NCBI GenBank assembly: GCA_016748015.1
Contig: JAAOMT010000200.1
Span: 370,984 to 434,983, forward strand
Direction of reading: 5' to 3'
DNA length: 64,000 nt
From: Geosiphon pyriformis uo1
Taxonomy: Eukaryota > Fungi > Glomeromycota
Below the pieces are notes generated by a model. It was not told the origin of the DNA. It did no database searches and was given only the letters and a program-made list of their open reading frames with translations. Made by a program: the position numbers and the translations under genes. Below, one piece after another: positions 1-54,129 of this stretch (positions within the stretch are counted from its first letter, which is position 1; the number at the start of each line of letters is the position of its first letter).

Positions 1-474
1 TATTGCTTCTTTGTTGAACATTTTCTGGCTGAGGTCTTTGTATAGTGTTTTCAAGTCAAGCTGTTCTCCAATTTTGTAGAACCAATAAGCTGGAGGAAGT
101 CTTTTTTTCCATTCCTGGGCGTTGTCAGGTGTCTACTCCCCTGTTTCAGGGAGTTTGGTCTCATGAGCTAAAGCTTGTTTTATTTCTTCAAGCTTGGGAA
201 CCAAGTATCTTCTTTTGTAACCTTTTTCTTGTTCTTTGCCTCCTTCTTTTCCACCTCCCGCCCAAAGGCAATTTTTCTTTCCACATTGCCTTTTGGGTGG
301 TGGGTAGGGGAGGGAATGTTTAGTTCTAATTGAACTCTCATCCTCCTCTCTCCTGCTCTTATCTTTGTACCATATCTCTTTTTTATCAATTGTTATTTCT
401 ATTTGAAATGTCAATTTTTGAATTGTTTCAAATAATTGTTTAGATAATTTTAAAATTTGATCTGAAAGGTCCAT
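1..474 (-). pseudogene. Family A extra ORF downstream of integrase (ORF3), unknown function, runs off window
   Basis: ATG at 474 gives MDLSDQILKLSKQLFETIQKLTFQIEITIDKKEIWYKDK; homologous ORFs at the same position in families B and C. Confidence 0.7.
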
Positions 475-554
475 GTTGAAATTTCTATCATTTCTTGCTG
501 CTTTTCGGATGCTATATATATTTGAATTCCCCAATTTAATTTGCTGCCCATTGT

Positions 555-1922
555 CTACGTTTCGATAATGATGATTGGTTCCAGATCTCATGGTATATCT
601 TCTGGTCTGATTAATGAAATTTGTGTTCCTAGTTGAGGTACTGATGATGATGATTCCTGTTTTACATGATAAATTTTTAACTGATTTCCATGCGCTACTT
701 TCTTTAAAATTCTGTCTTCCAATTGTAATTTGTAAGCTCCATTTTCTAATGCTTCGTGTATGTGGAATGGATCATTCCACTTTGGATTGAACTTTCCACT
801 CCACTGTTTTTCAGCTTTTGTATGATGTAACAGTACTTGGTTTCCAATCTTGAATTCCATTGGTTGTTCTGGCAGGTGTTTATTATGTCTTTCTTTTTGT
901 CATTCTTGAGCGTAATTAATATTGTCAGCTGCTGTTCTTTGATTGTTTTCCAACATTTCCATTAGCTGCTACATTCTTTGGTATAAGATAGCCTCAAAAT
1001 TCTCTTCATTGATTGTTTTTGTTGGGTATGGTGGTATCATTCGTTCAATTGGTAATATAGCTTTTCTTCCATAGACTAGTTCAAATGGTGTGAACTGAGT
1101 CATATTTTGTTTCAATATTCAGTATGCAAAGAGTACAGAAGGTATAAATAAGTCTCATTTTTGTCTGTTTTCATGACTTATTTTTGCTAGTGCTTTGCAC
1201 AGTGTTCTGTTAAACCATTCTACCAGTCTGTTCGTTTGTAGGTGGTATGGTGACGATAAGGGTCTCCTTATTCCAAACCGTTGGCTTAGTTCAGTCAGCG
1301 TATTATTAACGAAGTGTGTTCCCTGATCAGATAATAATTCTTTCGGACATTCATGTCGGCAAATTAGGTCTTGATGCACAAATTTGGCAACTGTTTTGGT
1401 GTCGGCCACTTGGATTGCTCTGGCTTCTGGCCATTTTGTAAGATAGTCTACGGCTATAGCAATATAGTGATTTCCTTGAGATGTAATTGAAAGAAGTCCA
1501 ACCAAATCGATCCCAATTCTATCAAATAGATTTCCAACTGGAATGGGTCAAAGTGGTTTTGTTGATCTTGTTCCTCCTTTTTGCTAACATGTGTCACAAT
1601 TGAGCACGTATTCGAAAATGTCTTTGTGTATTATTGGCCAATAGTATAAGTTTAGTGTTTTTTTAAGGGTAGCGTCTTTGTTAAAGTGTCCTGCAGTCGG
1701 ATCTGAGTGCATGCTATATAGTATAGTTTCTTTTTTATTGTCTGTGATTAGTCGTTGTGAGTTGGGGTGGTTTCAGCATTCTCATCAATATAGTTGGTTG
1801 TCTTGAATAAAATAATTTTGGGCTTGTTTTCATATGGTACTCTGTTCCTGTTGAGATAATATCTCCTTAAAACATAGTGTTAATAGGTACTGATGTAGTC
1901 ATTGATAAGTGAGTGTGTCCAT
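555..1922 (-). pseudogene. Family A integrase (H2C2 zinc domain, rve core, GPY/F-like C-terminus)
   Basis: ATG 1922 (MDTLTY); H..H..YYWP..CDTC; AVDYLTKWPEA, LLSDQGTHF, VEWFNRTL; KWNDPFHIHEALENGAYKL. Confidence 0.92.
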
Positions 1923-1932
1923 GGGTCTGGGA

Positions 1933-3300
1933 TTAGGTTTGTGGCATCCTCAACAAACTGTCGGCATTGGTGTTCTTAGATCCTTCCTTGTAATGGACTT
2001 TGAGTAGGAATTGTTGCAGATAAATACTCTATCTCACATATTTTTCTTCTAGTTGTGGATTGTTGAGTAACCAAATAAGTTCTTTGTGGTTGGTATATAA
2101 GTCAAATGGTTGACTGAGGTAATATTTCCAAGTCTGTATGGCCCAATAAATGGCGAGACATTCCAGATCTGTTGTGCTGTAATTCTTTTCTGCTGGGCTA
2201 GTACTGCGACTAGCATAGGCAACTGGGTGTTCTCTATTGTCTGGTCCTATCTGTGATAAGACTGCTCCTAGAGCATTTTTTGATGTATCTGTAGTGACAA
2301 TGAACCGTTTAGTGAAATTTGGGTAAATCAGGATTGGGGATGTAATCAATCGCTGCTTAAGATAGTCGAATGCTTTCTGTTGATCTTCCTTTCACAAATA
2401 CAGTATGTATTTGGACAACAATTGATGAAATGGTTTTGCGATGTTCGAGAAACCTTTGACAAATCGACAATAATATCCTGCTAATCTTAGAAATCCTTGT
2501 AATTCTCTGAGGTTGATTGGGGCTGGAAAATTTTTGACTTTTTGTACTTTATCTGGATCGGATTTAACTCCATTCTTGCCAATTACATGTCTTAGAAATT
2601 TTAACTCGGTTTTTCCAAAGAAGCACTTCTCGGGATTGAGTTTCAATCCGGCACTACGAAGGCATTCAAAAACTTGTTGCAGGTGAAGCAAATGGTCTTC
2701 GAATGTTTTGGAGAACACATTTGTGTTATCTAGGTAGACTACTACTGATTTTTAAAGGATTCCTTTGTATACTACATCTATCAGGCATTGAAACGTGGCA
2801 GAAACATTACAAAGTCTAAAAGGCATTACGTTAAACTCGAAGTTTCTATCTTGAGTGGTAAACGCTGTTTTTTTTTTATCTTTGAGGTCCATTTCAACTT
2901 GCCAGTAATCACTTGCTAAATCTAATGATGAGAACCATTTCTTTTTCTCTAGATTGTCCAGAATTTCCTGGATGAGGGGAGTGTGATAACTATCTCCTCG
3001 TGTGACGCTATTTAGTTTTCGATAATCTATGCAGAATCACACTTTTCTGTTTTTCTTGGTAACCAAGACTACTGGCGAGGACCAAGAGCTTAATGATTCT
3101 TTGATTAGACTGTTATCAAGCATCCATTGCACTTCTTGCTTAATTAGGTTATTGCTAGATGGGAGTATATGGTAAGCTTATTGCTTAATTGGTTGAACGT
3201 CTCCTGTATCAATCTGATGCTTCATGATGTCAGTGCATCCGAATTCATTTTGCTGACAAAGACATTGGCATACTGATTCAGAAGGACTTTGAGTTGCATT
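1933..3300 (-). pseudogene. Family A reverse transcriptase + RNase H
   Basis: CIDYRKLN, LDLASDYWQV, VVYLDNTN (decayed YLDD), LKLNPEKC; TTDTSKNALGAVL, VAYASR, NYSTTDLECLAI; ends NADSLLRMPQT-stop at 1935-1933. Confidence 0.93.
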
Positions 3301-3755
3301 TGTTGTAGAGTACTTAAATTTCCTAAATTTAATTTATTGATCTCTTCTGGTGTGAACAAATAACTTTCTTTTGGCAAATTCCATACTTGTGAGGTAATGT
3401 CACAGAATAAGAATAATTGTGCAAAATTTGGAATAGACTGGGGTTTTTCAGAATTCTAACTATCTGTGGATATAGAACTGATGAGAGTCCCTTCGGGAAT
3501 TTCAATGACCTCTTCTGTCGGGTTGTAGATGGGAATTTTGAAGTGTTTATGGGCTTTGGCTGGTAGGTATAAATTAGCAATATCAGCTAGGGAACAGATT
3601 TCAGGACTAGCTTCAAATAATAGGGCTTGATCTTGGATCTTTTGATTCACCTTGAGGATGTATTGTCGGTATGGGGGAATGGAGATGACAGTGTCAGTGT
3701 GGATAAATTCTACCTGGTCACTGTTTTTCTCTGTGAAACTAACTGGTACGTTTTC

Positions 3756-4170
3756 TCTTCCACTTGATTCAAATCCGTTGATTCCTCAGACAGTAAGCCC
3801 TAACTCTTCTCGGGTTGTTACCAGGGTTAATTGGGGTATTTTGATTAGGGGTAAGAAGATAGCTTGGGCAATCTTTTCTTGTGATTTTATTTTGTAGGGT
3901 CTGTCTGAATTGTTCTGTAGCATCACAATAATGTTTCCCGTGTAACTGGCATCGATAATTCCTCCTTTTATGTCGATTCTTTTCTTGGCTAGACTAGATT
4001 GAGAGACAACTTGTACTATTGTATTAACAGAAATTTCTAACACTATCTTAAGATCTATTTTTACAAGGGAATGTGGGGCTATAATGATGAGTGATTGTTC
4101 GGGGTATCATAGGTCGAAACTGGCATTAGTGTCATGTGCTCTTTTGAAGCAGATTCCTTCTTCGTTGTCA
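3756..4170 (-). pseudogene. Family A dUTPase domain
   Basis: All five trimeric dUTPase motifs, decayed: ASFDL, SQSS, GGIIDASYTG, EKIAQ, GINGFESSG. Confidence 0.9.
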
Positions 4171-4199
4171 CTGTACCATTTTAGCTCTAGTTTTTTGGA

Positions 4200-5180
4200 T
4201 AGGTTGGGATATGCGAGATACTATTCTGTTTTGGTATCCTTAGTTGGATCTTGAAACGACATGTCCTCGGTGATCAATACCTCTTCTTCAGGTTCAGGTA
4301 GTTCGGTGATTGAAAACAGTATTCTTGGAGGCAGATTGAACATGAGATCATATTCATCACAATACTGGAAGTGACAGGGGATCAAACAGTGATTGCATGG
4401 TTTGGTATTCAAATCAGCCAACCTTTGCTCCTGTTCCTCGTGAGTTGGGGCCAATTCCTGATATTAGTTCTGAAATGCATCTGGGTCATCTGTGAAGAAA
4501 TCATCCTCGGGGTAGTCGGGTCCAGTATATTCGGGCATCCAAGAGTTGTCCTTAATTTCTCATATTTCTTCAGATGTGGCACCTTCGGCCTTGGCGCTTG
4601 CCATTCTCCAGATTTTGTGGTCATCGTGTGGATAACCGTCTAGTCTGTTGAGTGCTTGTTTCCAAGCGTCCTCGATGGGAGTTCTCTTTCGTACCCAATT
4701 GTTGATTAATATGGTGTATTGACAAGTCTCGTCACATGTTTTTTCTCTGCCAGGCACATCATTCCAGAGTTCTTCATCTGGCAGGATTTTGCCACATGCA
4801 AGGCACGGCATGTGGTCCCACTTGCCTTGTCGTTTTGGTCATCCAAATCTTTCCAGTAAACAAGGCCTGCAATAGTATTTGGTGGCAGTGGGCCATTCTT
4901 TGTTGTTCCTGATACATGCGCCCATAGTAGATAGTTTTTTTCCACAATTGACACATATTAGTCTTGGGGGTTGGTAAAATAAGTTTCTTTGGTCCAAGGT
5001 TACGTATCCTAGTGATGACGATTGGGGTTCTTCTTCGGCTCTGCCTTTTCTTTTTTCTTCCCAGATTGGTGGTGGGGGTAGTTCAGTTTGATAATCATCC
5101 GCCCATGAAAACTGATAGGTCTCGATGGTTGGTGGCATTGATGTGTCTTCGAATTTAATAAGAGGTTCCTTAGTATGTTG
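4200..5180 (-). pseudogene. Family A Cys-rich domain of unknown function between protease and dUTPase
   Basis: CVNCGKKL..YYCRPC..PCLAC..CDETCQY..LDGYPHD..CNHCLIPCHFQYC; homologues in B and C. Confidence 0.7.
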
Positions 5181-5199
5181 GTTTTTAAAGTGTCCGCAT

Positions 5200-5600
5200 G
5201 TAGCTGGAACTCAGGCATGCTGTCTGTTAAATGTGAGTTGAAATTTTTGGGTGTTCTAGTCGAAAGTAGCATTGGCTTTTGACAACCAGTAATTTCCTAT
5301 TAGAGCTTGATATTGAGTAGCTTCCATGATGAATACTTTGGTAGGGATTTGGATTCCATTAATCTCAAAGGGGAAGTTGTCAATTTCTCCTATTGGGGTT
5401 TTTGTGTTCCCATCTGCTGTAATGATCCAAGCAGTAGCAGCACAGTCTACTCGGCAATCTAGTTGGTCCATGAGCTGCTTCGTGATTATGCTACCAGCTG
5501 ATCCGCTATCCAGGATTAATTTAATATCTATTCTTCTGACTCTGACATTAGTGTATAGGGCCATTATTGGTTTATCATGATTGATGGCTGCTTCACTAAA
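5200..5600 (-). pseudogene. Family A aspartic protease
   Basis: LILDSGSAGSII active-site motif and ALIGNYWL. Confidence 0.9.
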
Positions 5601-5689
5601 AAGGCTATGTGTGTTCAAATTATCGATGTCAAAAAGAAATATGGTGGCTAGGGTGGTGTTTTCGGTAATAGTGGCTGGTGGGATATTGC

Positions 5690-7719
5690 TTTTTGTTTGC
5701 TTGGAAGGTTGGAAAATTCATTCTATATTCCTCCTTTCACAGGTGTAGATTTATCAAAACTCTGGTCTTCCATAAGACTGAGATAGAAAGCTTGATTCGG
5801 GTATCCAGTTGGTGTTGGTCAAGATTGGGCAGGACCACGAGAGATTGGTTAAGACGGTCCACTGTTGGTTTGCACTTGATTGTTGTTGGGATTTTTTCAT
5901 CCCTGATTATAGTCTATAGCTTGAGGTCTGGATGGGCTGTAAGAGAAAGTTTGATAGTGAGGGATTGTTTGTGTCATTAGTGGTAGTTGATAATAATTCT
6001 AGGGCAGTGGTTGAGTGTATGGAACTTGTTGTGCATATAAGAGCAGTTGATTCTGAGGTATGGAATATTGGGGTACCATGTTTTGCTGATATCTGAGTTG
6101 CTGGTATGGGTTTCCTTGATTTTGGTCCATGATCTTCCTTCTACAGTCACGGGCGATGTGTCCAGGTTTCTGACAGTAGTAGCAGTTGTGGGGATCAGAT
6201 CTCCAAGGTTGTTGCTGTTGCTGACAGTTCTGTTGCTGTGGGTATCTGCTGTTGTTGTTATTTTCTCTCTGTTGGGGTGGTTGGTAAGTTCCTGTAGTTC
6301 CGGCTAAGAATCTCTCAATTTTCTGAGTTAGTTTCTCACTCAATTGGGTTATCTTTGCATCAATGTCAGAGATTCTGTTAATGGCTAAATTAATGGCTTG
6401 GGTATGGTTTGCTTCTTGTTCTGCAGACTCAAAATCGCGAGTGAGAGTGACAACGTCTTGTAAACTGATCAGATGACGGAGTCTTACAGATCTTAGAATA
6501 CTACTTCGCAATTTTTTAATGAATTGATTAAAAACTTGTGCCGTGGTGTAGTAGTCCCTTTTGATAGCTAATATTTGACACAGGATTTGATTGAATCATC
6601 TGAAATAAATAGTTACTGCTTTGTGATTTTTTTGTTTAATTATGCTGAATTGATTCTGCAATCGAATTAATGTATTGGGGTCACAGAAGTATTGCAGAAA
6701 TGCGAGTTTAAACTCAGTAAAGGAGGTAGGCTTCTCTGCCAGGCTCTGGTACCACAAATTGGCAGTTTTGGTCAGAAAGAATGGCAGTGCTTGAACTGTG
6801 TGATCATCATTCTAACCATTAGCAGTAATTGCTTTCTTGGCGTCCGTGATCCAAGAATATGCGTTATCTTCTTCACCAGAGAATTTTTCTAATTTAGTGA
6901 TATCCTGGTAAGCCATGATCTGGTTAATGGGTGGGATGTTACTGGTTATGTTTAAAGGGATTAATGTCTATGTATTCGAGTGTTCTCTAAGTGCTAATGC
7001 TGGTTTCTTTCCTTTGTCACTTGAACCAATAGGTTGTAAGATAGCTGTTTTTTCTGTCAGAGGAGATGCTGATTCTGCTAGGTTTTGTGCTGGTGGCTGT
7101 TCCCAAGTTGACGGGTTTCTTTCTGTTTGACCAGCTGCTGGAGTAAGATTTCCAAACAGTGATCCATATTCTCCTAGTGATTTGATCTAACTGTGTTGAT
7201 TTCAAGGGTGTGGATTTCTAGGAGTTTGTGATGTTTCCAACTGGGTTTCCGGGGGTGGGTTGAATACAATTCTACTTTGGGGTGTCTGATGATATGATGG
7301 AGTTGTTGGAGAGAAGACCCTTGGTTTCTTGTTGACCGTGAACTTGGCTTGGACAGTTACAAGATTGTTGGATTCGTTTTTGTATTCCTTAAAGTCGGAT
7401 TCCACTGGTTGTTGTACTTGAGGGAATCATTGTGCCACATAATATTTAATGTCTGTATCGATTATGCACAGAGTTTCAGCAATTGCTTGAGTAGTCGTGG
7501 CTGTTGAGTACCCTAGTAAGCTTTGATGGATTTGTTCTCCAAGTCTTCCTGTATCAGTTGCGCGGCCTAACAAGCAGTCAATTTTTGCGTTGATATAGTT
7601 ACAAAAATCACTTTCTATGTAAGCGGTTCCTGCTGGTATTCCTAGGTCTTTTCGAAATATTGAAATAGTGCTTTTCCATATGAGGAGTGGTCTTTTTCTA
7701 TTGTTCCAATAGTCGCCAC
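5690..7719 (-). pseudogene. Family A gag (N-terminal extension, capsid-like domain, zinc knuckle, Q/P-rich tail)
   Basis: MAYQDITKLEKFSGEED from 6916; CYYCQKPGHIARDC knuckle; upstream helical region starting at GTG 7719. Confidence 0.85.
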
Positions 7720-7761
7720 TTTTATGTATTTTTGGAGGTGCTCTGTCTCTGTGGATTTATA

Positions 7762-7779
7762 ACCTCACAGGGAGCACCA
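7762..7779 (-). promoter_or_regulatory. Primer-binding site (18 nt) of family A
   Basis: Plus strand acctcacagggagcacca fits tRNA positions 59-76 (5-nt T-stem arm, 7-nt acceptor arm, discriminator A, CCA), 2 nt from the LTR end. tRNA identity (elongator Met or Ile-like) not determined. Confidence 0.85.
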
Positions 7780-7781
7780 AA

Positions 7782-8865
7782 TGTTATGGGTAAACTTGGT
7801 GGGTATGGGAAATGGTAACATTTAGTGCTCTCAATTATTGATGATGCATCTTTCACGTAATTCTGTTGGCTTAGTCTTGATTATTAGTCTCTGAAGGTCT
7901 ATTCCTGGATGTGAATTTTACCCATTGAGTTCTTTGGTTATAAGACACAGAGTTTGTCTTTTGTTGATTTTAACGTTTTTTGTAAATGTAAGCTTTCTTC
8001 TCCAAGCTAATGAGTGCAGTCGTTAGGGTCTGACATTGTCTTTTCGCCCTTCTGGTAAGCTAACAAGATAATGTTAATATCCAAAACTTAGGGGGAGCTT
8101 CTCTCTTTTACCAGGCTATCATGAAGTCTATTCCCAGACAGTTGATTTTACTATGTTGCTGCTCCACAAAAAATTAAGACAGAAAAAGAAAAAGAAAAGA
8201 AAAGAAAAGAGAGAAAAGATAAATTAATATCATCAATCGCTGTAATCAAGAGCAATTGGTCCAAATTGTTAATAGGTTTGAGGCAGTTATGCTAAGAGCA
8301 ACTGTTCTAGAATGGAGATACGAGACAAGGGTTAATTCATGTAAATTCTATGAAGTTCGAGAACATGAATTCATGATTCTGATTTCTTTTAATAATTGGT
8401 TTATTTCAGGAGATGAAATAAGGAAGATAATAAAGGATGAAGGAGTATGAATATTTTAATTTCTGGTTTAGAGGTTTGTATCTATTTTTTTCTTCTCTGT
8501 CTTTTCTTACTTCTACAACTACTTGCTTTTATACATTCTTTTGGTTATACAGGATTGCTTTTAATTATCTCGCTATCACTAGCTATTGCTTTGTTGTTTC
8601 TGTTATTGCTTCGTTTTTCTATGTTATCGCTAATTATCCTATGTTATAACATGTTATTTGACATTATTACATGTTATTCTGTGTTATTCTGCATTATAAC
8701 ACATTATCCTACATTATTGTGCACTATTCTGTGTTATCCTGTGTTATAACACGTTATTCAATGTTATAATGCGTTATCCAATGTTATTGCATGTTATTCT
8801 GTGTTATGTCACGTTTTGGTCATGTTTCTTCATAACTTTGGATCGGTTTTTCTACTTGGGTAACA
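7782..8865 (-). repeat. 5' LTR of family A (~1.08 kb)
   Basis: TGTTA...TAACA termini, adjacent PBS, homology to solo LTR 43224-44226. Confidence 0.9.
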
Positions 8866-8898
8866 CTGCTGCGAGAGTGAGAAAATTTTTAGGAAAAA

Positions 8899-10908
8899 TT
8901 GCTTTACTTTATTCTTTTACCTTTTGTTTATCAAGTCATTTCTTCTACTATACCTCTATTTGTCACAATAGAACTGGTAGGCTCTTCTGCTGGTAGTTCT
9001 GGCTCAGTTTCGGCTGGTTTGGGGACCCATCAGAGTGCGAAGAAGAAATGCGTGGATACGGTCTACTTTCAGAGTGCATCCTACAAGAAACCAAAGAAGT
9101 CTGTTGCTGGTAATTTGGTTAACTTGTCTGCTGGATCACTTAGCTTGGAGGATATTGGTGGTGTTGGTGCCAAGTCTGTGGAGTCTTGGAGCAGTGAGGT
9201 TGGCAGTGTTGCTAGTAGTGTCAGTGGTCTCTTAGATGTCAAAAATATGGCGAACACGGTGGCTGAAAAAACCAGCTATGCAGAATCAGATGAGAATAAT
9301 AGCATGGACAAAAATATGCCGAGAAAGACTCGTACTCAAACGTATATGCTGGACAACCCACCAAAGCAATCTTTGTTCGACCATATGAGTGATGACAATG
9401 ATGTGCTGGAGCTTCCTCCTCCTAAATTCAATGGTGCCAATCAGATGCCGCATATCAGGTCACGTGCCCTGGAAAAAAGGAATTTCAAGCCAGTAAAATT
9501 TTTCACATTAGATATTGAGGTTTTGGCAGTACCTGGGAAGACAAATGTTGATAAGTTGATGGCAGTTAAAAAAATCTTTTATCAAATTGATGGTTTTGGA
9601 GAAGCTTTAACTTCAAAATTTCCAGAAATAATAAGATCATCATTTACATCTGAAAAAAGTTTGATTAAGGCAAGAAAAATGGCAATTGGTGAGAAGATTT
9701 TGGTAAATGATGATCTAAGGAAAATAAACAGCCATTCAGATCAGGAAATAATTGTTAAAGAAATCTCAATGGATCTTTCCAAATTGGCTGTGAATTCAGC
9801 ATTTTCTAAATTTGGCAGAATTGTTTTAATCAAAATACAGCTAATTGGTCTTTGACAAAAGACTCTGGTTGAGTTTGAGTCATCTAAAGTAGCTAGTTTG
9901 GTTGCATCCAAATGGTCAGTCTTCATGGGAAAAGATTTGGTGCATGTGGCTTTGACAGTCAGTGATAAACAAACATGAGTATCAAGGGATTGGCATTGTG
10001 TTTTGCTTTATATGCTTCCAGTTGGCACCACTGCCCATGATCTTTCCAGTTTGTTGGATTCATATGGTGGGAGGACTTGTTTCATTGGCCGTAATCCTAA
10101 TTCATATGTTTGTGATAGATGTGCTGTAATTTGTTTTGGTGATAAGGTGTCCAAGTTGGCTGCTATTGGTATCATTTCAGTTTTCAAGGGTGTAAGTTTG
10201 TGTTGGGCTGGTTTTTCTTTGGCCAGTTGCACTTGTTGTAAACAATTTGGTCATGTTACGGTCAACTGTCTCTTGGATGAAAATTCTGGTGTTCATAGAA
10301 AGAGAGTGGTTTCTGATTAAGATTGGGTTTGTCTGGCTGGGATATATAAGAAAAAGTCAGCTCTTATTGCTCATCCAGTCTTATTTGGTAGTAAAACATG
10401 GGCCCAAGCTGTTGGTGGCTCTTCTTCTTGTGTGGTTCCCTCTGGTTTAGTTGGTGCTGGTTTGCGTTCTGGTTTGGTTTTTTCTTCAATAATAACTGAC
10501 TCTCCTACCATTTTTTATTTGAGTGACCGGCTGGCAATTTTGGAATGCTCTTTGGAGCTTTTGACTGACCGCATTTTTGGCATTTTGGTTTGTCTGGAAT
10601 CCATTGGTTTGGTTCTTGTGGTGATCTCATCTCTGAGCTCTCTTCCTGCTGTTTCTGAGGCTTTGACTTCTGATGTGGATTTTAATATGATTGTGGATAC
10701 TGCTTTGGTCTTGTCTAGTACTCTTCCATCCATTGTTCATAATGCTGTTGTTGAGCTTAGCTCTAGTAGTTCCAAAGTCCTCACTGCCAAAGTGAGTGGT
10801 TTGGAAACAAAATTGATTGCTTTGGAGGCCTCAGTTGGTTCAGTTTTGAATAAATTAAATATTCTGTGCTCTGGTTCGGGTTTGTCAGTTCCCCTGTCTT
10901 CTCAATGA
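8899..10908 (+). pseudogene. LINE ORF1 (RRM-like domains, CCHC knuckle, coiled coil)
   Basis: SAFSKFGRI..LVEFES RRM-like segment; CTCCKQFGHVTVNC; heptad-like C-terminus. True start uncertain. Confidence 0.8.
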
Positions 10909-13900
10909 CTCACTTAATTTGGAAAATTGCCACGTGTAATGTTAAAGATATGAACAATTGTGTGAAGCAGGCAGACATTGTATGATGGCATAAAGATATG
11001 AACAATCTGGTCTCCATTGTTACTGAGACAAAGTTAAAAGTCATGGTTTGTCCATGGATTGCCGATAAGTTCGATGGTGTTCGTGTTTTTACTTCTGGTC
11101 TGGATTCTGGTCACATGGGATTTGGTGTTGCAATAATTATGGACTCTTCTTTGGTGAAACATGTGTGCAAGATTTCGGAGGTACCTGGTCAACTGTTGTC
11201 AATAAGGCTGCTCTTTGAGAATAAACTTTTTGTGTCTATTCTGGGGCTGTATGCTGGTGCGTCTTTAGTGGTTCAGTTTTCTCAGGCTAGTGACATTAAT
11301 TTTCTTGTTGCCAAAGCTGTAAATGAGACTTCTTTTGTCATTCTTAGTGGCGATTTCAATGAAGATGGGTCTCATAAATGTGCCAGTTTCAGGAAGTGTT
11401 TTGATTTGGGTCTGGTCAACTCTCTAAGTGGAAGTGCTTTTGTGAAGTCACTGACATAGTGCAATTTTTGTGGTGTTGCCAAAACAATTGATTACATGTT
11501 GGTTTCCTCTAGTTTAGTTAATACAATCATGGATCATAGTGTGGTGGGTGTTGAGGATTTTTTTGATACTGATCATAGGGCTGTTTCTGTTTCTGTGGGT
11601 CTGGGTGTTTTGTTGGATGTGCAGCTGCTGTCACTATACAAACAGGCCAATAAAAATTGTTGGAAGTTTGATGTTAAAAATACCAGTGGAGGGAAGTGGT
11701 TGGAGTTTAAGAATGCTACAGCTGCTAATGCTTCTATGCTTTCAGATGCATTTGTTGCGGCTACAAATTTTCAGATAAGGATGCAATGTGGGATGTTGTT
11801 TGCAAAATATTGATTCTCTCAGCTGGTGAGACATTCAAGAAAAAATGGTTCAAGGGTTATAGTAGTGTTTTCAATAAGGTTTCTTCTAAGTTTTATAGAC
11901 TGAAACTGCTTGTGTCTAAGCTTGTTAAGGCCTCTTGTCTGGTTTTTGGTGGAAATTTTGCTTCTTTGTTGGATACATGGGACAGACTTGACTCAATTGG
12001 TGCCTTGTCAATAAAGTCTCTATTTCTTTTGGGTTCTGGTTTTGATGCTATTTGCTCCGAACTGGCTAAGGCAAGGAAGGTTTACTACTCTTTGAAGATG
12101 ATGGAATCTAAGCGCACTGAGGAATCTCGTATTAGGCAGGCTATTGAGAAGAGGATGGAGAGTTTTGAAGTGGACAAGGGACGCACCATTAGAAGTGTTC
12201 TAGAGCATCCTTTCCATAAGATGGTACTGGATCACTTAGTTACAGGTAAAGAGTTGGTCTTGGAGCCGGATTTGGTTAAATCTAAGGTCGATGAGATCAT
12301 GGAAGGTTGGACTAGAAAGCATGTAGTAATGCTGAATATTTCTGATACCTGGGTGCGCCAATTTCAGCCTTTGGATTATGTCTTTAATGATGCCTTCTCT
12401 GAAGTAATGTGTTCAATTGGTTTTAATGAGTTGCTTACAATTGTCTCTAATTTGCCTGATGGTAAGGCAGTTGGTCTTTTTGGTATCTTTAATGAATTGT
12501 GGAAACACTATGATAGAAAGGTTTTGAATATGCTTTTGTTATTGCTGAATTTTTGTTTGGTACATAAATCTGTTCTTGGATCTTGGAAGGAAGCTTGGGT
12601 GTCAATGATTCTTAAACCGTATGAATGGGAGGGCATTCTCACGAATACCCATCCTATTGTATTGATTGAAATGGCCTGCAAGATTCTTTCCAAGATTCTC
12701 TCAGACAGAATTTTTTCGGCCTGCAGCAGGTTTAATGTTCTGTGTAGGGACAATGCAATCGCCCATTTTTGCCATTGGTTCTGTGGTGAAAGATGCATTA
12801 AAAAAGAGCCGAGAACTGTGGCTGGTTTTGTAGGATATGTGAAAAGCATATGATTTTGTTGGCTGGGTGCATCTCAGAAGGAGTTTGGTTAGGATTAAGA
12901 TGTGTGACAAGTTTATTAGATTTTTTGGTGACATTCACAATGGTCGCATCAACAGGGTGATGATGGATTTTGGCTTGACTAATGGTTACCGTGTTCATGA
13001 TAGTCTGGACCAAAGGGAGGTTTTTTTGCTGCTTCTTTGGTGCATATTTTATGATTTGCTCTTGTGTGAAGTCAAACAACAGGAAAGCATGTGTGGTTAT
13101 AGGTTGAACTCTCATTTTATTTCCAGAATTGGTCAGGTAGAGCCTCAGGCCAGGCTGATGTCATTCTTTGTTGCTGGTGCTTTTGTCGATAATACTATTT
13201 GGGTTGGTGGTAGCCGGGCTGCTACGCAGCACATTCTCAATGTTGCTGGTGAATTTTTTAGGATTAATGACATTTTAATTAACAATGACAAGACTGTAGC
13301 CATTCCTATCAACAGTCAGATTGCAAATCTTTCTTTGACTATCAATGACTCGTCTATTTCTATTGCCAAAAAGAGTGAACCTCATTGATATCTGGGTATT
13401 TTTTTGTCTTCTAAAGGTCTTTTGATGCCTAGTCTGGCTAAAGCTTGCTCAGACGTTTGGTTCTTTGTTAATTTTGTTCTGAAGAAGACAATCTTAGACA
13501 AACAATTCGCATATTTGGTTTCTGTAGTTCTTCTGTCTATCATCAGCTATAGAACTCAATTCAGCTTTGTTTCTGTTGGTGTGTATAATAAGTGGGACTC
13601 TATGGTTCGCAGGTGCTTGAAGTCTAAGTCTGGACTGCCACTCGACTTCCCCAATGATGCAGTTTATTATCCTTCTTTGTACAATTTTAAAACTTTTGAA
13701 CAGATCCAAGCTGAGAGTAAATCGGCTGCTGTTTTGGCTTTTGCGAATTCAGTTGGTATTTTGGGTCATTTGTTTTCTCACAGGTCTCATGATCTTCAGG
13801 CTCTCAGTTGATGTCCCTGTCATTCTTTGCTGTTTTCAGCTCATGTTTATGTCAGCCCTTCAAACAACTTTCTGTCAGGTGTGGTTCGTATTTTTTCTGG

Positions 13901-15568
13901 GTGTGACTTGTCTTTGGGTGCCTCTCTGGCCAGCACTTTTCGTCTCCGAAATGGCACTCCTATGTCTCTTGTTCTAGGTGAGCCAAGATTTCTCAAATGT
14001 GTCTTGTCACTCAAGCACTATAGTATTGCTTTCGTGGAACAGCTTCGTAACAGACATGGTATTGCTTTCAGTTAGAAAACCTTCAAATGTTGGAAAAGGC
14101 TGGATCCCTATAGCCCAGTTCCTGTTTGGTTTGATATTTCTGTTTGGTTTCTTGGTAGCGTTGTTCCTTTTTCTGGGTGCTCTCTCCTAATAAGTGATCA
14201 CGCTTCTCCTGATATTTGTCTTTCTCGCAATTTTGGCATGGTTTGCAACAATTTATTGGACATTGACACTGCTGTTCGCCTCTCTGTATATACGGATGGG
14301 TCTCTAAGTGGTTTGGGTACTGTTGGTATGAAGGCTGGTGCTGCTGTTTTTTTGAGAACATTGATTCAGAGTTGGGTGTGAAGGTGTCTGGTTTGGTTTC
14401 CTCTACACTTACGGAGTTGCAGGTCATTGCTTTGGCTCTCGAGTGTGTTCCTTTTTTCCATTTGGTGGATTTGTTCTCGGACAGCCAGGCTGCTTTGGAT
14501 GTATGCAAATCCAAATCTCTACTGGCTCGACCAGACTTTAGGAATTGTTGTTGGATCGAGTGTCGCCACATTGCTAATATTATTTATGATAAGAATTTGG
14601 ATGTGAATTGGATCAAAGTAAAGAGTCATTCAAGTGTCCCTAACAATGACTATGCTGACTCACTTGCAGGGGTTTCTGCCTCATCTTCTTGGTGGCTGTT
14701 GCACAGGATTGGTGAACGGTTTTTAAGAGCTGGTGACTCTGCCATTTCTGGTAATTCAAGATATTTTGTTCGTGATATCTTCTGGTCAATTCATCAAGTG
14801 TATTAGGAGGTTGGATCCAGTTCCCAAGTTTTGGTAGATAGTTTGCGAAGTGATGTTGATTGGACCAGATCTGTTTCGGTGTGGCACCTGGATTCTCACA
14901 TGGCTGCTGGCTTCACTAATTTGCATACTGCTGGCTTTCAGACTTATTTCATGAAAGCTCTGCATCATCAACTTCCTGTCACCATGCGTAAGCATCTATA
15001 TGATAGGCTTTACCCCAGTGTAGTGTGCTTATTTTATGGTGATGTTGAGATCTCCAATCATGTTTTTTCCTGCTCCTTTGACGCTGTGGGCTGTAAGCAT
15101 TTGATGAACACTTATGCGGCTGTTTGGGAGGCACACTCTCATTTATCTCGTTCTTCTTTGTGCATTTCACAGTTACTGTCCACTTGTGCTTCAAATTGTG
15201 TGGTTGGGGTGGCCTTATGTAAAGAATTTGTTTTCAATAATTGGTATTGTGAATCTGTCTCTGTTTTTAAAAATCCCAGGGTGGCAGCTTGTAACATGGT
15301 GTTTTTTGTGTGTGAGTTTTGTGCTGCATTCTGGGATGAAATCTGGTTGGTTTGTGTAAGACACTGGGCAGTGATAGAAAAAGATGGGCTAATTCCTTGT
15401 GATGGCTCCATTTTTGCCTCTGTTTTTGGTTTTTCTATGGGTTTTTCAGCAGGTGTTGTTAGATTATTAGGGATTGCTGATGCAATTGGCATTTGTTTCA
15501 GGTTTCGTAGGTCCTGTTTGTTTTTTTCTGGTGTTTGTGAAGAGGTTTCTGTTCATATAAGTGTGTAG
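10905..15568 (+). pseudogene. LINE ORF2: AP endonuclease, RT, RNase H, C-terminal Zn finger
   Basis: KIATCNV, VTETK, SGDFNE, IDY, TDH (APE); GAFVDN, YLGI (RT); YTDGS, ELQ, FSDSQAAL, KVKSHS (RNase H); CLF..E..HVFSC. Confidence 0.92.
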
Positions 15569-18500
15569 TGTTGTTTTGACTGGTCTGAGTAGCTGGTCAC
15601 GTGTAGAAAAAGCATGATTCACACCTAGTTTAGATCATTTAATGATGTATTGCACTAAGTAGAGTTTGGACTTCACTCATTAAACAAAATAAAAAAAAAA
15701 AAAAAATTTATTTAAATAATAAAATTTTTTAAATATATATAGTTTAATATTATATAAATAAGTTAAATATATTAACTTTTTTCTCTCTTATCTTCATAAA
15801 TCCTCAAAGAGCATTGTTTCTGAAAAGAAGTTTTTTATTTTTCTTGCTAGTTTATATCAATATTTTTTTACTTAATAACAACCCATTTTTTGTAAATTTA
15901 AAGGCTACTACAGGTGGCATTATGTCTAAAAAAAAGATATTCAAAGATGCTTTTCATGGCCCTGCTGGTGAGTTTTTTTCTCAGAAAAAGAAAGTTGTTC
16001 TTGGAAACATCAAACATTCTGGTGATAAGAAGGATATCTCCTTAAGTAAATCTGGGTCTAATGATAGCATATATTCTAATATAGATAGTCTGTCTGGTGA
16101 TAATGAGAATATTAGCATAACTGGTGCAAATAGTGGATCTTTTCTGGGCTTGGTTACTACTATTTTCAAGGTAAAGTGTGTTAATATTAATGCTGTCTTT
16201 AGCTCTCTATTCAGATATCCCAATTTTAATATAAATAATAATAAAGTTCTTCTCCCTTCTTGCTTGCCCATTTCTCTAAACAAGAAGTGAATTGACCTAA
16301 AAATTATCAAAACTCTAGTAGAAGTGTCAGTTAAAAAGTTGTTTGCTTTGGATATTAATTTTTTAGCAGTAGAAAAAAAATCTGCCACAGCTAAAACTCA
16401 ACTTATCAGAAAATTATTTTCATCAATTAATAATTTTGGAGGGAGACCACTACTTTCTCAAAATTTGAAGAGATCATCAGATCTATCTTTACTTCAAAAG
16501 GAAGCATGAAAAAGACTATATCATTGGCCAAGGAAAAAGAAATTAAAGTAAACAGCAATCTTAAAAAACAAGAAATTTGTTCAGATTGAGCTGTAGTTAT
16601 TAAAGAGATTTCCATGGATACACCTAAAAAAATAATTGTTATAGGTTTTTTTGAGTTTGATCAAGTAATGTTAATCTAATTACAACTTATTGAACTGTAA
16701 CAGAAGGCTGTAGTAGAATTTGCTAAATTGAGCCAGACTGATCAGTTGGCAGCCAAGTGGTCATTTTTAATTGGGAAAAATTCAGTGTGCATAGCCAAGA
16801 CTGTAGGAAATTATAATGTCTGAATATCAAGGAATCAGTTTAGGACACTTTTGTTTATCTTGCTGATAGGAACAACTGCTTATAATTTTGGTACTTTGTT
16901 AAAAGGAGTTGGTGGAAAAATGTGCATCATAAATTGGTCTCTGAAAACTGACAATAGGATTTGCTGTGTTGTAGTTGGCTTTAATTCTGATAAAAATTTG
17001 GAATTAGCTTTTTACATGGAGCTGATCTTTGGTGAAGTTAAGTTTTTTTGGACTAGAATAAATTTGGTTTGATATAAGAAGTATAGGCATTTTGGTCATT
17101 CAGCTTTTAAGTGTGATTTTTTGGGTGTGTTTGTTTTGCTGTCTTCAAAAAAGTCTTATAAAAAGGTTGCTTTTGAGAAAACCTATATCCAGCTTGCCAG
17201 ATTATATGAAAAGAAAAGTGTTTTGATTTCTCACTCTGCTGTCTTTGGCAAAAAATCTTGGATCTAAATGGTCTCATTAGCTGGTTCTTCTGGTGGTTTT
17301 CACTTCAATTTTAGTTTTGGTTTTCTTTTTTCTGGTATCTTAAGTTTAAATGGTGGTTGTCTTTTTGCTTTATCTGATAACTTATCTTTAAACACTTGTT
17401 TGGCCTTTTTGGAATGCTTTCTGGAGCTCTTGACTAATCAGGTCTTTAGCATTTTACATAAACTCAACAACATAAAATTGGTGCTATTGACTCTACACCT
17501 TTTATCTCAAGTGTTAAATACTTCAATTGCTACCAGTTTGAATTTGGATATGAATATGGTTGTGAATTGTCTTGAGTTATTGTCTTTATTCCCTTCTTCT
17601 GTTTTTTTTAATGTTTCAACACTGAGTCCAAATAGCTTAAAAGTTTTGACTACTAAAGTGAAATGTCTAAAATCTAAATTAATGGCTCTTGAGGTCTCTA
17701 TTGGTTCAGTTTTAGTAAAATTAGATTATTTGTGCGCTGGTTTGGGTTCTTTGGTTTCTTTATTATCTTAATAAGTTATTTAGTTTGGAAGATTGCTACG
17801 TGTAATGTTTGGAGTATTAACATTTCTACTAAGCAGAAAGATATTATTTATTGGCATAAAAAATCAGGAAATATGGTTTCAATTATTACAAAAATAAAGC
17901 TAAAATCTAGCATTAGGCCTTGAATCATGAATAAATTTAATAAGATTTAGGTTTTTTTGTTTGGTTTGAACAAGAGATTTTTTGGTGCTGGTATGACTAT
18001 TGTCATAAACTGTTCTCTTGTATATTATGTTTCTAAGATTGAGAAAGTTCCTGGTTATCTTATTTTAGTTCAGCTCTTCTTTAAGGGCAAGTTTTTGGTT
18101 ATGTTTTTGGGTTTGTATGCTGGTGCTTCTACTAAAGTTAAGTTTGAATTGGCTTCGAGAATCAACTTTTTCATAGTTGAAGCAGTTAATTCTAGCAGTT
18201 TTGTGGTTTTGGGTAGAAATTTCAATAAGGATAATGTAAAAAAAAATGCTAGTTTCAAGTTTTGTACTAATTTGGATTTGATCAATTTTTTTTATGGACA
18301 CTTGCTAGTCAAGACTCCTACTTGGGGCAATTCTAGAGATGTTGAAAGGATTATTGATTATATTTTTGTTAATGATAGCTTGTCATCATTGATTTTTGGT
18401 TATAAGATAGACTCTGTTTCAGACTTCTTTGGCACTGATCACAAGACTGTCTCAGTTTTGGTTAGCTTTAATGGTATGTTAGATGTTGATTTAAGCCAAG

Positions 18501-20595
18501 TGTGTAGGAATGCTAATCAAGACCACTGGAAATTTAAAGTTAAAAATACAAATGATAGTAAATAGACACAATTTAGAAAGATTTTTTATGCTAACATGTC
18601 AATAAATTCAGGTGATTTCGGAAGTATAAGAGAGCTGGGTAATTTGGATTGTATGTGAAAAGTTTTGCAAAAGATGATTGTGGATTCAGCAGATTTGGTA
18701 TTTTTTAAGCAGTATTTTAATGCTTTTGACTTTTCAAGAAACAAACATTTTTCTAAGTTTTACAGACTTGAATAGTTAATGACCAAACTGATCAAGTTTT
18801 AAGTTTTAATGATAGCTTAAGGTTTGTTTATCTTGTTAGAATTTGGTTGGCTATTGATAATAATAAAGCCTCTGTGGTTAGTGAAATGGTTAATGGAAAG
18901 ATAAAGTGTATGAACATTGTTAAGCAATTGTCATTGTTCAGAAAAAGTTATTGTTATTCTAAGTATTGTGAATTAGAGTCTGCTAAAAAGGCATCTATCA
19001 CCAAAATTATTGATAAGCACATGGAGAATTTTTGTTTGAGCAAAAGTAATATGATTAGAAGTGTTTTGAAGCAGTCTTTTTGCAAGATAATACTAAACTA
19101 CTTAGTGGTTGGTAACAATTTGTTCTTGAATCCAAAGGAGGTCAAACTCAAGGTTAATCAGATCATGGTCAATTGGATAAGAAAATGCATAGTATTAGCT
19201 ATGCAGTCTGACTTGTGGTCTCAACAGTATGCTTCTTTGAATTATATAAAGAATGATGCTTTCTCAGAAGTAATAAATGGAATCAGTATGGACAACTTGG
19301 TTTCAGCTGTTAAAAATCTGCTTATTGACAAGACTGCTAATATTTCAGGTATTATAAATGAACTGTGGAAACACTGTAATAAATCTGTAATGTTTTGTCT
19401 TTTGAATCTATTCAACAAATATGTATTGAAAAGTAATGTTTTTAGTCTTTGGAGAAATGCTTGGGTTTCAATGATTCTCAAGCCTTATAAATGAGATGAA
19501 ATCTTTACAAACATCCAGTCTATTGTATTAATTAAAACAGCAAGGAAAATTTTATCCAAAATTTTGTCTGATCACATTTCTCTGGCATACAGCAAGTTTA
19601 ATGTTCTCCATAATAACAATTTCTTAGTTTTAAAAAGTACTTCAACTCAGTCTTTGGTATTTACAGTTGGTTCTATTGTGAAAAATGCATTAAAAAAGGG
19701 CTGGAAACTCTGGATGGTCTTGCAAAACATGCACAAAGCTTATGATTTAGTAGAAAAAGCCAGTTTAAACCAAATTAAGATGTGTAACAAATTTATTAAA
19801 TTTTTTGAGAATATATATTTGAACAGAACAAACAGAATAATGACTGATTTCAGTCTGACCAATGGTTACAAGATACATGATAAGCTTAACCAAGATGAAG
19901 TCTTCTTCCTACTTCTTTAGTGTATCTTTTATGATCTGCTTTTGTGTGAAGTCAAAAGACAGGAACACTTATGTGAATACAGAATAAATTCCAAGTGAGT
20001 AGCAAAATCAGGCAGAATAGAAGCTCAATCTAGTATGACTATGTATCTTGCAGCTGGAGCTTTTGTAAATAACACTATCTGAATAGGTAACAGTCAAGCA
20101 GCTACACAACATATTTTGAACATAGCAAGTGAGTTTTTTGCCCTTCATAAACAATGAGAAAACTGTTGCTATTTCCATTAATTGAAGAATCAGAAACACT
20201 TCTTTATTTATCAATGGTGTACTAATTGCAATTGTTAAAAAAGATGAAGTTCACTAATACCTGGGCATATTTTTGTTAATAGAAAAACTTTCAAAACCTA
20301 ATTTAATTTAGGCCAATTCAGATGTTAGATTTTTTTTGAATGTAGTTTTGCATAAAGCAATATCTAATAAACAATTTTGTTACTTAGTCTCATTGGTATT
20401 ACAGCCTATTATTTATTACAGAATGTAGTTTAGTTTTGTTTTCAATAATGTATACAGTAAACTCTCTTTATAATCACACTTTTTGGTCAGCATATTTGTG
20501 GTGACTATAAAGAGATGAGACTATAAAAAATGATTAATATCTTATCACATAATCTATATATTACATGCATAATATAATAACCAATTATATATATT

Positions 20596-30224: not shown

Positions 30225-31415
30225 CAGTTTCTTATACAAGAAGCCAAAAAAGTCTAAAATTACTAATAACTTAGTAAATTTATTAACTAATCTTATATCT
30301 GTTAATATTTTGCAAACTAATAATAATAGTTACAAAAAATCTTAAAGTAATAAAGTAGATAACAAAAAAGTCAGCATTAGTAAAATATTAAACATAAAAA
30401 ACATAAAAATATAATTACAGGTAAAACAAATTATATGGATTTAAACATTTTTAAGATTAATAATATGATAAATAATACTACTTTAAGAAAAATACACATT
30501 AAAATATATGTCTTAAAACAGTTGTTAAATATGTTTTCTTTTGATAAAATAAGTAATAATAATAACAACATATTAGTGCTTTTAACTCTTAAGTTTGATA
30601 AATTTTAAAAATTGCTATTAATCAAATTATAAAACAATAAAATTAAAAATTTAAATTTAAAAATTTTTTTGAATTAAATATTGAAATTTCTGTAATAAGT
30701 TGTTATTAATAAAAAAATTTTTATTATGTTAATAGTTTTAGAAGTGGTATTTACTTCTTTAAAATTCTCAGATATTATTAAATTATAATTCATATTTAAA
30801 TTAAGCTTGAACAAAACAATAAAATTGGCTATTAGTAAGAAAATTTTGGTAAATAATAATATTAAAAAAGTAAATAATAGTATAGATTGAGAAGTGATTA
30901 TTAAAAAAATTCCAATTGATTTTTTTAAATCAGCTGTAAAATCAGTTTTTTTTAATTTTAATAAGATTATATTGATTAAGATACAGTTTATTGATTTTTA
31001 ATAAAAAATTCTAATTGAGTTTGAATTTGCTAATATTATTAATTTGGTTATAGCTAAATGATTAATTTTTATAAAAAAAAATTTTGTGTACATAATTAAA
31101 ATTGTTAATAATAAATAAACATAAATATTTAAAAATTGATATTAGATTTTGTTATATATTTTACTAATTAGTACTATTGCTTATAATTTTTTTAATTTAT
31201 TGGTTTCATATAATAAAAAAACTTGCTTTATTGGTTATAATCCAAGCATATATAAATATAACAAGTATATAATTGTTTGTTTTGTTAATAAAACATTAAA
31301 AAAAGCTGTTATTAATTTTATTTTGGTTTTTAAAGATATAAATTTATGTTGGATTGGCTTGTTATTAGCTGTTTGTACTTAGTGTAAACAATTTAATTAT
31401 GTTTTTAATATGTGT
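30225..31415 (+). pseudogene. LINE copy 5, extremely decayed ORF1 fragment truncated by an LTR
   Basis: Collinear with copy 1 ORF1 from tacaagaagccaaaaaag to the zinc knuckle; very low GC. Confidence 0.75.
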
Positions 31416-32351
31416 TATTACTCATAAAAATTAAAAATATTATAGATAAAGTAATAGCCAATCAAAAGTAAGTGTAGTAACAGAGAAATTCCAAGATTTA
31501 TCTAAAAGAATTACAGGATTCCAGAATTCTAGAATTCCAGGATTTTTTATAAAAAAGCACAGGATTCCAGAATCTTAAAATTCCAGAATTCTTCTAAAAG
31601 AATTGCAGGATTCCAGAAATCTCATATAACACTAACTATGTATATATAACAGTAGTATTAAAAATAAAAAAAGACATAATTTAGTTCAGTTTTCATTTTG
31701 TTAACATCTTTTTTTACTTCTATTAATTAATTTTTTATGAATAGTTACTATTCTCTAAAGTAAATTTATTAAAAAATATTAAATAAACATACTTATTATC
31801 ATCTAATTTATGTTATTATTATTTGATTGAGAATTTGAATCACTTTTTTAGTTATTAATACTTCATATTAATAAAATCTATTTAATCACATTAAAACAAT
31901 AGCTTTTAATTATGGCTATTAACAGAATACTAATTTCTTTTTTTCTTTTTATTTCTTTTATTTGTTGTTTTGTTGATTTACTAATTGATTAATAGGATTA
32001 AGCACTGAGTAATTGACATCAAAAGAATTAGTAAAAAACTTAAAAATAAAAATAAACACTCAGAATTTGAAAATAGCTTACTAAGAAACCAGCCATTAAG
32101 CTAAAAAAAAATTGATAGAAAAATCTTGCAAAAAGCTATAAATACCAAAGCACACTAACTCGAGAGTTGAGAAAAAAACTAAAAACATCATCAAAGAATA
32201 TTACTATTAAATTTCTGTTTATTATACAAAAGACTTAACCAAAATCTTTAGACCACAAAAACTTTTAGATATTACTAATACTATCAAACTATTGAATACC
32301 AAGTTATAAGTTTGTTATTTATTCTAACTACTTAAATAATTACCTGTAACA
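31416..32351 (+). repeat. Family B LTR (B1), followed by PBS and truncated gag to 32932
   Basis: tattactcata...ctgtaaca, then tttggtgctc; CCAAT at 31456, GAATTC/GGATTC repeats, TATA at 31641. Confidence 0.85.
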
Positions 32352-48844: not shown

Positions 48845-48876
<32 letters not shown>

Positions 48877-50205: not shown

Positions 50206-50324
50206 TAAGAGATTTGAAATAAAAGAAAATTATTTTTGGTGTATGGGTTTTTATGTTATTTTTGTTTTGTTTTTGTAAGATTGTTTCTAAATTATAAGGA
50301 GATAACTATAATGATAAATTTAAA

Positions 50325-51710: not shown

Positions 51711-51756
51711 TGTTTGTTGTTTTGTTGTTAATTCAAATGAGTGTTGGTTTTGTATT

Positions 51757-54020: not shown

Positions 54021-54129
54021 GAGTTGTAAGGCAGGCTGATTTTTGATGAGATAGATGGGTGTTGCTTCAATTTCTTCTGTTGCTTCAAGTTCTCCAAATT
54101 CAATTTTTTTTTCATTGTTTTTACTGGGC

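Follow-up and report, generated by a model that had tools for sequence, protein, structure and literature searches.

Long terminal repeat (LTR) retrotransposons normally bring their integrase (IN) into the particle as part of Gag-Pol. In Ty3/gypsy elements (Metaviridae), integrase forms the C-terminal part of Pol, and the elements are further characterized by LTRs with TG...CA ends, a primer binding site (PBS), a polypurine tract (PPT), a gag gene encoding capsid and a CCHC knuckle, the order protease (PR)-reverse transcriptase (RT)-RNase H (RH)-integrase, and an H2C2-DDE integrase with a GPY/F-type end. Three decayed Ty3/gypsy elements, designated A, B, and C, lie in a 64,000-nucleotide stretch of the genome of the fungus Geosiphon pyriformis uo1 (assembly GCA_016748015.1, contig JAAOMT010000200.1, positions 370,984 to 434,983 of the forward strand; here called the window). 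They share the latter features and add a Cys-rich domain, a dUTPase, and a third open reading frame (ORF3); all three carry many stop codons and frameshifts, and their closest named relatives are G. pyriformis gene models. Because their integrase is not C-terminal in Pol, they are classed here as a Ty3/gypsy variant, a real and unusual one that is broader and more modular than a first-pass annotation of the window had envisaged. We consider it probable that A, B, and C are dead members of a single branch within a wider Ty3/gypsy group in which integrase is a gene of its own, likely expressed by restart after the RNase H stop codon, and is followed by a conserved soluble ORF3 protein that likely binds nucleic acid.

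Some of these characters occur in described elements. A dUTPase lies between PR and RT in PosPlaTy3-5 of Postia, and dUTPases are also found in Tuber (Tmt1) and Phanerochaete elements (PMC2864245, PMC6431247) and in planarian Burro and rotifer elements (PMC6431247, PMC5408684). In the accessible parts of those reports, and compared by description only, PosPlaTy3-5/Tmt1-type elements have no separate integrase, Cys-rich domain, or ORF3 of the A/B/C type. The bdelloid rotifer elements Juno, Vesta, and TelKA resemble A, B, and C in carrying a dUTPase in pol and an ORF3 that is often not Env, whereas their ORF3s are given as Env, TM, GDSL, or DEDDy and their integrase is listed in pol in the available text (PMC5408684). 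The A/B/C-type ORF3 had no Pfam match to Env, TM, GDSL, or DEDDy. Errantiviruses (gypsy/17.6 type) likewise have a third ORF after integrase and make a 4-bp target site duplication (TSD), but that ORF encodes a membrane-anchored Env, whereas the A/B/C-type ORF3 is 190 to 240 amino acids (aa) long and has no hydrophobic segment. Ginger1 DNA transposons share a stand-alone Gypsy-type integrase ORF, a 4-bp TSD, and TGT ends; they have terminal inverted repeats and no gag or RT, in contrast to the direct LTRs, gag, and RT of A, B, and C (PMC2836005). No separate integrase, A/B/C-type ORF3, or Cys-rich domain was described in the literature searched, and no A/B/C-type layout appeared in the accessible parts of PMC2774666, PMC2836005, and bioRxiv 2021.03.30.436303; the catalogues Repbase, GyDB, and REXdb lay outside the search and may contain these elements. 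The claim that the combination is undescribed therefore stands for the literature searched, although a dUTPase between PR and RT was already known from fungi, rotifers, and planarians. It is also conceivable that the lineage has been catalogued already, for example among unnamed Repbase or RepeatModeler families or in other papers, merely without detailed description. The LTR expansion in Geosiphon is known, LTR elements making up 41.2% of the genome (PMC11952901); against this, the searched literature held no description of the layout, and fungal surveys, in their available text, list chromoviruses, Ylt1, and SN_1006 and include no Glomeromycotina among the fungi sampled (PMC3248453 and a second survey). 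We regard prior cataloguing as somewhat unlikely.

The three families have mutually unalignable LTRs, as first proposed: LTRs align within families only, and between families just T-rich tracts match. The common layout named by the first-pass annotation is present in A, B, and C, with the order gag (capsid, CCHC)-PR-Cys-dUTPase-spacer-RT-RH, then IN, then ORF3 (Table 1). Pfam identified capsid, CCHC, protease, dUTPase, RT, RNase H, and integrase in A and C, domains of B were called by tblastn, and ORF3 was recognized by protein comparison and a family profile; A is truncated by the window edge within ORF3. A gag extension, also claimed as common to the families, is indeed present, but the extensions are weakly alike (best E value about 1e-3 between window pieces and 2e-5 via a Geosiphon model). 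A programmed gag-pol frameshift in A and C was considered and rejected. The gag/PR shifts of A and C differ in place, as expected of decay, and two relatives (P0061 and P0011) are in frame; ORF1 thus extends from Gag through RNase H, and the description "three ORFs" is correct for the A/B/C branch.

Integrase lies outside Pol and has its own start codon. In A the RNase H stop (TAA) precedes an integrase ATG in another frame at an offset of +13, and in C the stop (TAG) precedes a decayed integrase start, also in another frame, at +49. A separate integrase had been proposed for all families; the stop and frame change are found in A and C, whereas the junction in B is too decayed to read. The RNase H stop is not a product of decay, since intact relatives stop at the same place: among 120 listed RT relatives, many ORFs end a few residues past RNase H or extend without integrase, and the intact locus L003 encodes gag, pol, integrase, a 284-aa ORF, and ORF3 in succession. 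Stop-to-ATG offsets in seven loci with DNA were -5, -1 (ATGA), +2 (TAATG), +8, +17, and +166 (L005), and the seventh (L007) has a 161-aa ORF between RH and IN; six integrase ORFs aligned from the chosen Met have Tyr6 in common. Overlaps such as TAATG and ATGA are characteristic of termination-reinitiation in RNA viruses, and the overlapping or close stops and starts suggest reinitiation here. An alternative is that the lineage and layout are as described but that integrase (and ORF3) is made from spliced or separately promoted subgenomic RNA. The gaps of +49 in C and +166 in L005 and the extra ORF in L007 speak for it, as does the report that LTR elements usually express ORF3 from a spliced mRNA (available text of PMC5408684). 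Stop and start overlap or nearly do so in three of the seven loci, however, and are separated by less than 20 nucleotides (nt) in two more and in A, and a stop-start coupling would be of no use to a spliced message; we judge this alternative unlikely, if still worth weighing. The 284-aa ORF of L003 (7404-8255), between integrase and ORF3, has no Pfam family, and in a subgroup comprising P0183, P0192, and kin, 200 to 400 residues follow RNase H.

A, B, and C form one clade, as anticipated, with support of 97 to 98 in RT-RH trees and 100/100 in an RT-RH-IN tree of 51 rows. The separate integrase appears, from the trees, to mark a wider group, with elements from Rhizophagus and Cetraspora among its members. 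In a FastTree RT-RH tree of 245 rows (258 collected, 13 dropped for coverage below 60%), a 72-row branch with support of 89 held 5 window rows, 62 rows whose ORF stops past RNase H and lacks integrase, 3 rows of the fused type, and 2 that could not be classified. In a 107-row RT-RH tree built by a quick method from chosen rows, the 45 chosen split-integrase rows form one side of a branch (support 63) and require 1 change versus 34 for shuffles, and the 7 split rows in the RT-RH-IN tree group with support of 83/72. Named members are from Rhizophagus clarus, R. irregularis, and Cetraspora pellucida; 4 of 10 clusters looked up had names, one as a Bacillus metagenome-assembled genome (likely contamination), and the host range of the wider group is likely Glomeromycotina fungi. 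Short RT pieces (L117 and L130) 57 to 64% identical to the query occur in an assembly of the endobacterium "Candidatus Glomeribacter gigasporarum" and are likely contamination from its host fungus. The best PDB match, with L003 as the query, was the RT of yeast Ty3 (E 5e-98). The integrases of A and C have no Chromo match in a scan that detects the chromodomain in L048 and L112; two chromodomain-bearing loci come out in sister position with support of 96/95 in the RT-RH-IN tree, a placement that the RT-RH tree does not reproduce, these trees being without named references. Env-bearing loci (L011, Baculo_F) branch apart from the group in the RT-RH-IN tree. A search of viral contigs turned up no element of similar layout.

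The ORF3s of A, B, and C are, by sequence comparison, one protein family without a named relative, in agreement with the earlier claim that the three share it. Direct tblastn among the three ORF3s gave no match, and a profile from the C family only missed A and B; homology across the three is drawn from intermediates, namely, P0428, which is 73% identical to A ORF3 over 84 residues and matches C-family ORF3 at E 7e-10, and P0415, which matches B ORF3 at E 1e-21. The locus tag of P0428 adjoins that of an A-family Cys-dUTPase model. C ORF3 has 202 relatives, of which all 120 listed are Geosiphon models, and ORF3 is intact at 221 to 239 aa in many Geosiphon copies (about 239 aa in the C type). 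A profile from C, L003, and L005 searched against 1.84 billion representatives found 63 proteins, P0428 and P0415 among them; one distant family member is named from Racocetra persica, and another profile match, P0411, was rejected as unrelated. ORF3 probably belongs to the wider split-integrase group as well. It is not Env, as it lacks a hydrophobic segment: the highest 19-residue hydropathy was 0.5 to 1.3 in 8 of 8 members, and no Env family was found by Pfam for 35 members. In those 35 rows, G, R, and F residues of the core are conserved in at least 90%. The predicted structure is helical with a predicted local distance difference test (pLDDT) score of 81.7. The best Pfam hit (DUF1016_N, E 0.12) and the best fold match (Z 4.3) were not significant, no significant match was found in Foldseek PDB and viral sets, PDB sequences, or PHROGs, and P0427 fell in unnamed clusters only in the Atlas. 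Matches to the helix-turn-helix (HTH) domains of the ParB family (Spo0J, ParB, and KorB; Z 3.2 to 3.6, root mean square deviation 3.5 to 5.6, 60 to 97 residues) were tied with those to unrelated helical proteins. The weak HTH and DUF1016_N hints, together with conserved surface-type residues, suggest that ORF3 likely binds nucleic acid.

The Cys-rich domain and dUTPase have been under purifying selection, which bears out the proposal that retention of accessory modules implies selection. The Cys-rich domain, approximately 215 residues between protease and dUTPase, consists of three Cys clusters around a helical middle, belongs to no Pfam family, and is spanned by 34 stored proteins; it likely binds zinc. 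Its structural model is poor (pLDDT 53.7), and the fold search covered the three-helix part alone (Z at most 5.7). A look-alike in L067 was rejected as not significant (HH probability 5%; 28 of 1,000 shuffles). Selection was gauged by codon-position identity between families, using a protein-guided alignment that somewhat inflates positions 1 and 2. Between A and C, the Cys-rich domains are 40% identical in amino acids, with identities falling in the order of codon positions 2 > 1 > 3 (0.65/0.57/0.38) and 7 of 25 four-fold sites matching; the dUTPases are 48% identical, with the same order (0.69/0.63/0.39) and 6 of 26 four-fold sites. Across families, amino acid identity is 25 to 42% for the Cys-rich domain and 48 to 52% for dUTPase. 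Amino acids were thus retained while third positions and four-fold sites came near saturation, which argues for selection on both domains during the active life of the families. Conservation between families extends to the dUTPase/RT spacer; spacers of this type may resemble a degenerate dUTPase fold.

The first-pass annotation treated these characters as one package, which does not hold: the separate integrase, and probably ORF3, is far more widely distributed, and among 49 split-integrase relatives whose PR and RT share an ORF, 2 have a dUTPase at the PR/RT position and none has the Cys-rich domain. Of the 491 proteins related to the A protease-to-dUTPase stretch, 119 of the 120 listed are G. 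pyriformis models and one is an ENA protein, P0061. This protein, intact and from outside Geosiphon, encodes PR-Cys-dUTPase-RT as a single frame, carries all five dUTPase motifs, and groups with the window clade (support 83); P0061 and the ORF3 homolog P0420 are each on an ENA contig of 19,119 bp. P0179, whose start is missing, has the last third of the Cys-rich domain and a dUTPase. The pairing of Cys-rich domain and dUTPase is thus narrow, being confined to Geosiphon and two metagenome proteins; the branch with the full layout comprises Geosiphon, probably P0061 with P0420, and perhaps P0179. Window-type dUTPases are 46 to 57% alike among split-integrase elements and about 33% alike to two dUTPases located after RNase H. 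Placement of the dUTPase-bearing elements as one RT clade was rejected (p-AU 0.0009, for a group defined after earlier trees), so a single dUTPase subtype whose carriers are not one RT clade points to repeated loss or module swapping. Elsewhere among relatives, split-integrase P0175 has a NUDIX domain, another nucleotide-pool enzyme, ahead of protease, and P0211 has a different dUTPase positioned after RNase H.

The common PBS that had been reported was recovered. The sequence TGGTGCTC is exact in A, C, and an extra B-type LTR (at 32354), begins two bases past the LTR, and has only these three exact copies on both strands of the window; the PBS of B differs by one transition. A PBS-complementary stretch is present in the U5 region of 2/2 A-type, 6/6 B-type, and 2/2 C (with a bulge) LTR ends, at 46 to 49, 58 to 59, and 23 nt from the LTR end, respectively. 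The anti-PBS stem, previously described as shared, is strong in A (z = -4.9; 0 of 300 shuffles fold as well), moderate in B-type LTRs (-2.5 and 4/300 in the extra LTR, -2.0 and 14/300 in another copy, but -1.2 and 32/300 in B itself), and weak in C (-0.55; 82/300). The shared 4-bp TSD holds exactly for C (AAGA/AAGA) and a solo A-type LTR (ACAT/ACAT), each with a chance expectation of about 1%, but not for B, whose flanks at the given coordinates (CTAA versus ATGT) do not match, and A has a single end inside the window. The duplication at the solo LTR fits a decayed ACGT; that of C does not. In Tf1-type elements, the transcript 5' end is complementary to the PBS and primes reverse transcription itself. 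A comparable mechanism, with a transcript that begins at the anti-PBS, folds back to pair with the PBS, and yields the primer on cleavage, would account for the presence of the complementary stretch in the A-, B-, and C-type LTR ends though these LTRs otherwise do not align. That stretch in A and B also pairs with the LTR end. However, the PBS begins with TGG two bases past the LTR, the usual tRNA pattern; self-priming would leave an R+U5 of only 23 to 59 nt; the stem in C does not outdo shuffled sequences; and L003 has a TGG-type PBS without a clear stem, all of which makes self-priming improbable. As for the possibility that the split integrase and ORF3 reflect decay and chance open frames, the window copies do have many stops and frameshifts, including the decayed gag-PR junctions of A and C, but intact relatives ending at the same place, the intact L003 locus, which refutes it, the many intact Geosiphon copies of ORF3, and its distant homologs at the same position leave this explanation next to no likelihood.

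The motif GGAGCTCA stands directly before the PPT in B (42013, plus strand), C (49541, minus strand), and L003 (9190) and is read by ORF3 tails in two frames (5 and 8 of 39 representative proteins); two reading frames over the same motif suggest that it is likely retained as a cis-acting nucleotide signal.

Several observations weigh against a wider group with reinitiated integrase and a conserved ORF3. Every copy of A, B, and C is dead. The wider split-integrase clade has modest support (63; 83/72), several of its rows share an AT-rich composition that can draw them together, and ORFs ending after RNase H are also scattered outside the group (e.g., L017, L020, L023, and P0203). ORF3 was found in 2 of 134 loci and in 2 of the 3 split-integrase loci reaching past integrase, being missing in L026, and it had no significant fold or family match. 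Plain reinitiation fits poorly with the +49 and +166 offsets and the intervening ORF of L007. No tRNA was found in the 64-kb window. In the intact relative L003, gag and pol are in separate frames, the PBS is different, and there is no clear anti-PBS stem, from which it follows that the one-frame gag-pol, the TGGTGCTC PBS, and the anti-PBS stem are not group-wide.

Coordinates of the three elements and of two further LTRs are collected in Table 1. The window is AT-rich and CpG-poor. B is flanked on the left (31416-32932) by gag sequence from another B-type element and on the right (42999-43223) by sequence from a Cys-rich domain; the mismatched flanks likely reflect recombination between two nested B-type LTRs. 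C sits inside a B-type LTR (48323-58922). Other remnants of the same clade, comprising RT, integrase, protease, and dUTPase pieces, are present at 45747-48078 (+), 59681-60712 (-), 62118-62915 (+), and 63008-63927 (-). Decayed repeats resembling non-LTR retroelements with RNase H (weak Pfam match) occupy 8893-20300 and 30710-31403 (+), with two copies of the non-LTR-like repeat at 10774-13407 and 17640-20276.

Table 1. Positions of retroelement features within the window
Feature	Position	Strand	Evidence
A 5' LTR (TG...CA); anti-PBS at 7816-7832	7782-8865	-	Sequence; stem z = -4.9
A PBS TGGTGCTC, 2 nt past LTR	7772-7779	-	Exact sequence match
A gag: ~280-aa N-terminal extension, capsid, CCHC knuckle, Q/P/Y-rich tail; decayed	5720-7759	-	Pfam Retrotrans_gag 2e-07, zf-CCHC 7e-06
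A aspartic protease	5178-5570	-	Pfam
A Cys-rich domain, ~215 aa	4326-4976	-	Alignment; no Pfam family; low-confidence model
A trimeric-type dUTPase, motifs decayed	3747-4190	-	Pfam dUTPase 1e-17
A dUTPase/RT spacer	3261-3746	-	28-42% between families
A RT and RNase H; stop TAA 1933-1935	1936-3243	-	Pfam
A integrase (H2C2, rve, SH3-like C terminus), separate ORF; own ATG 1920-1922	555-1922	-	Pfam, junction reading
A ORF3, cut by window edge	1-474	-	73% over 84 aa to P0428; family profile E 4e-06
B 5' LTR, decayed start; PBS 33857-33864	32933-33854	+	LTR alignment
B gag through RH, heavily decayed	33866-39886	+	tblastn, Cys profile
B parts: capsid; PR; Cys-rich domain; dUTPase; RT-RH	34818-35762; 36131-36850; 36849-37462; about 37637-38080; 38618-39886	+	
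B integrase	39957-41306	+	50% to A integrase
B ORF3, decayed	41371-42000	+	blastp E 1e-21 to P0415, 2e-14 to P0428, 6e-4 to C-family ORF3
B pre-PPT motif GGAGCTC, PPT, 3' LTR	42013-42998	+	85.6% to 5' LTR (122 transitions, 10 transversions)
C 5' LTR; TSD AAGA 58341-58344; PBS 57372-57379	57382-58340	-	Sequence
C gag: N-terminal extension, capsid, CCHC	55601-57370	-	Pfam
C PR, Cys-rich domain (54129-54767), dUTPase (53592-54032), spacer, RT-RH ending in TAG 51757-51759	51757-55559	-	Pfam, tblastn, profile
C integrase, separate ORF, start codon decayed (51710)	50325-51710	-	Pfam, junction reading
C ORF3, reads through PPT into 3' LTR	49484-50210	-	202 homologs; model pLDDT 81.7
C 3' LTR; TSD AAGA 48530-48533	48534-49515	-	93.1% to 5' LTR (63 transitions, 3 transversions)
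Solo A-family LTR, exact 4-bp TSD and anti-PBS sequence	43224-44226	-	Sequence
Extra B-family LTR, exact PBS, gag stub, immediately ahead of B	31416-32932	+	LTR alignment, sequence

In the working cycle proposed for these elements, a host tRNA would prime at the 8-nt PBS, a step held with good confidence, and the anti-PBS stem in U5 would gate access to it. The Gag-PR-Cys-dUTPase-RT-RH polyprotein made from ORF1 would be processed by its protease. The dUTPase would prevent uracil from entering the cDNA, and the Cys-rich domain, likely zinc binding, may act inside the particle, a role that is a guess. Integrase would be made by termination-reinitiation, the mode toward which we lean with some reserve, and, made apart in this way, would have to enter particles without a tie to Gag. 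ORF3 might act on the DNA or RNA of the element itself as a regulator or anti-silencing factor, not as an envelope, although this assignment is tentative.

A large natural group that encodes integrase apart from Pol raises the question of how the enzyme is made and packaged. ORF3 represents a conserved non-Env accessory family that has no named relative and whose structure is predicted with confidence, and it is a candidate for a regulatory role in hosts whose transposons are methylated and silenced. For Geosiphon itself, element ORFs are annotated as hundreds of hypothetical host genes, and its gene set is inflated as a result. More speculatively, there may be a Glomeromycotina-wide Metaviridae clade that moved integrase out of the polyprotein to be made by reinitiation and that retained, across fungal orders, a lineage-specific nucleic-acid-binding ORF3 of a new family, perhaps with an anti-silencing or packaging role; within it, the Geosiphon branch would have gained a zinc-binding domain and a dUTPase and may have driven the LTR expansion of its host's genome.

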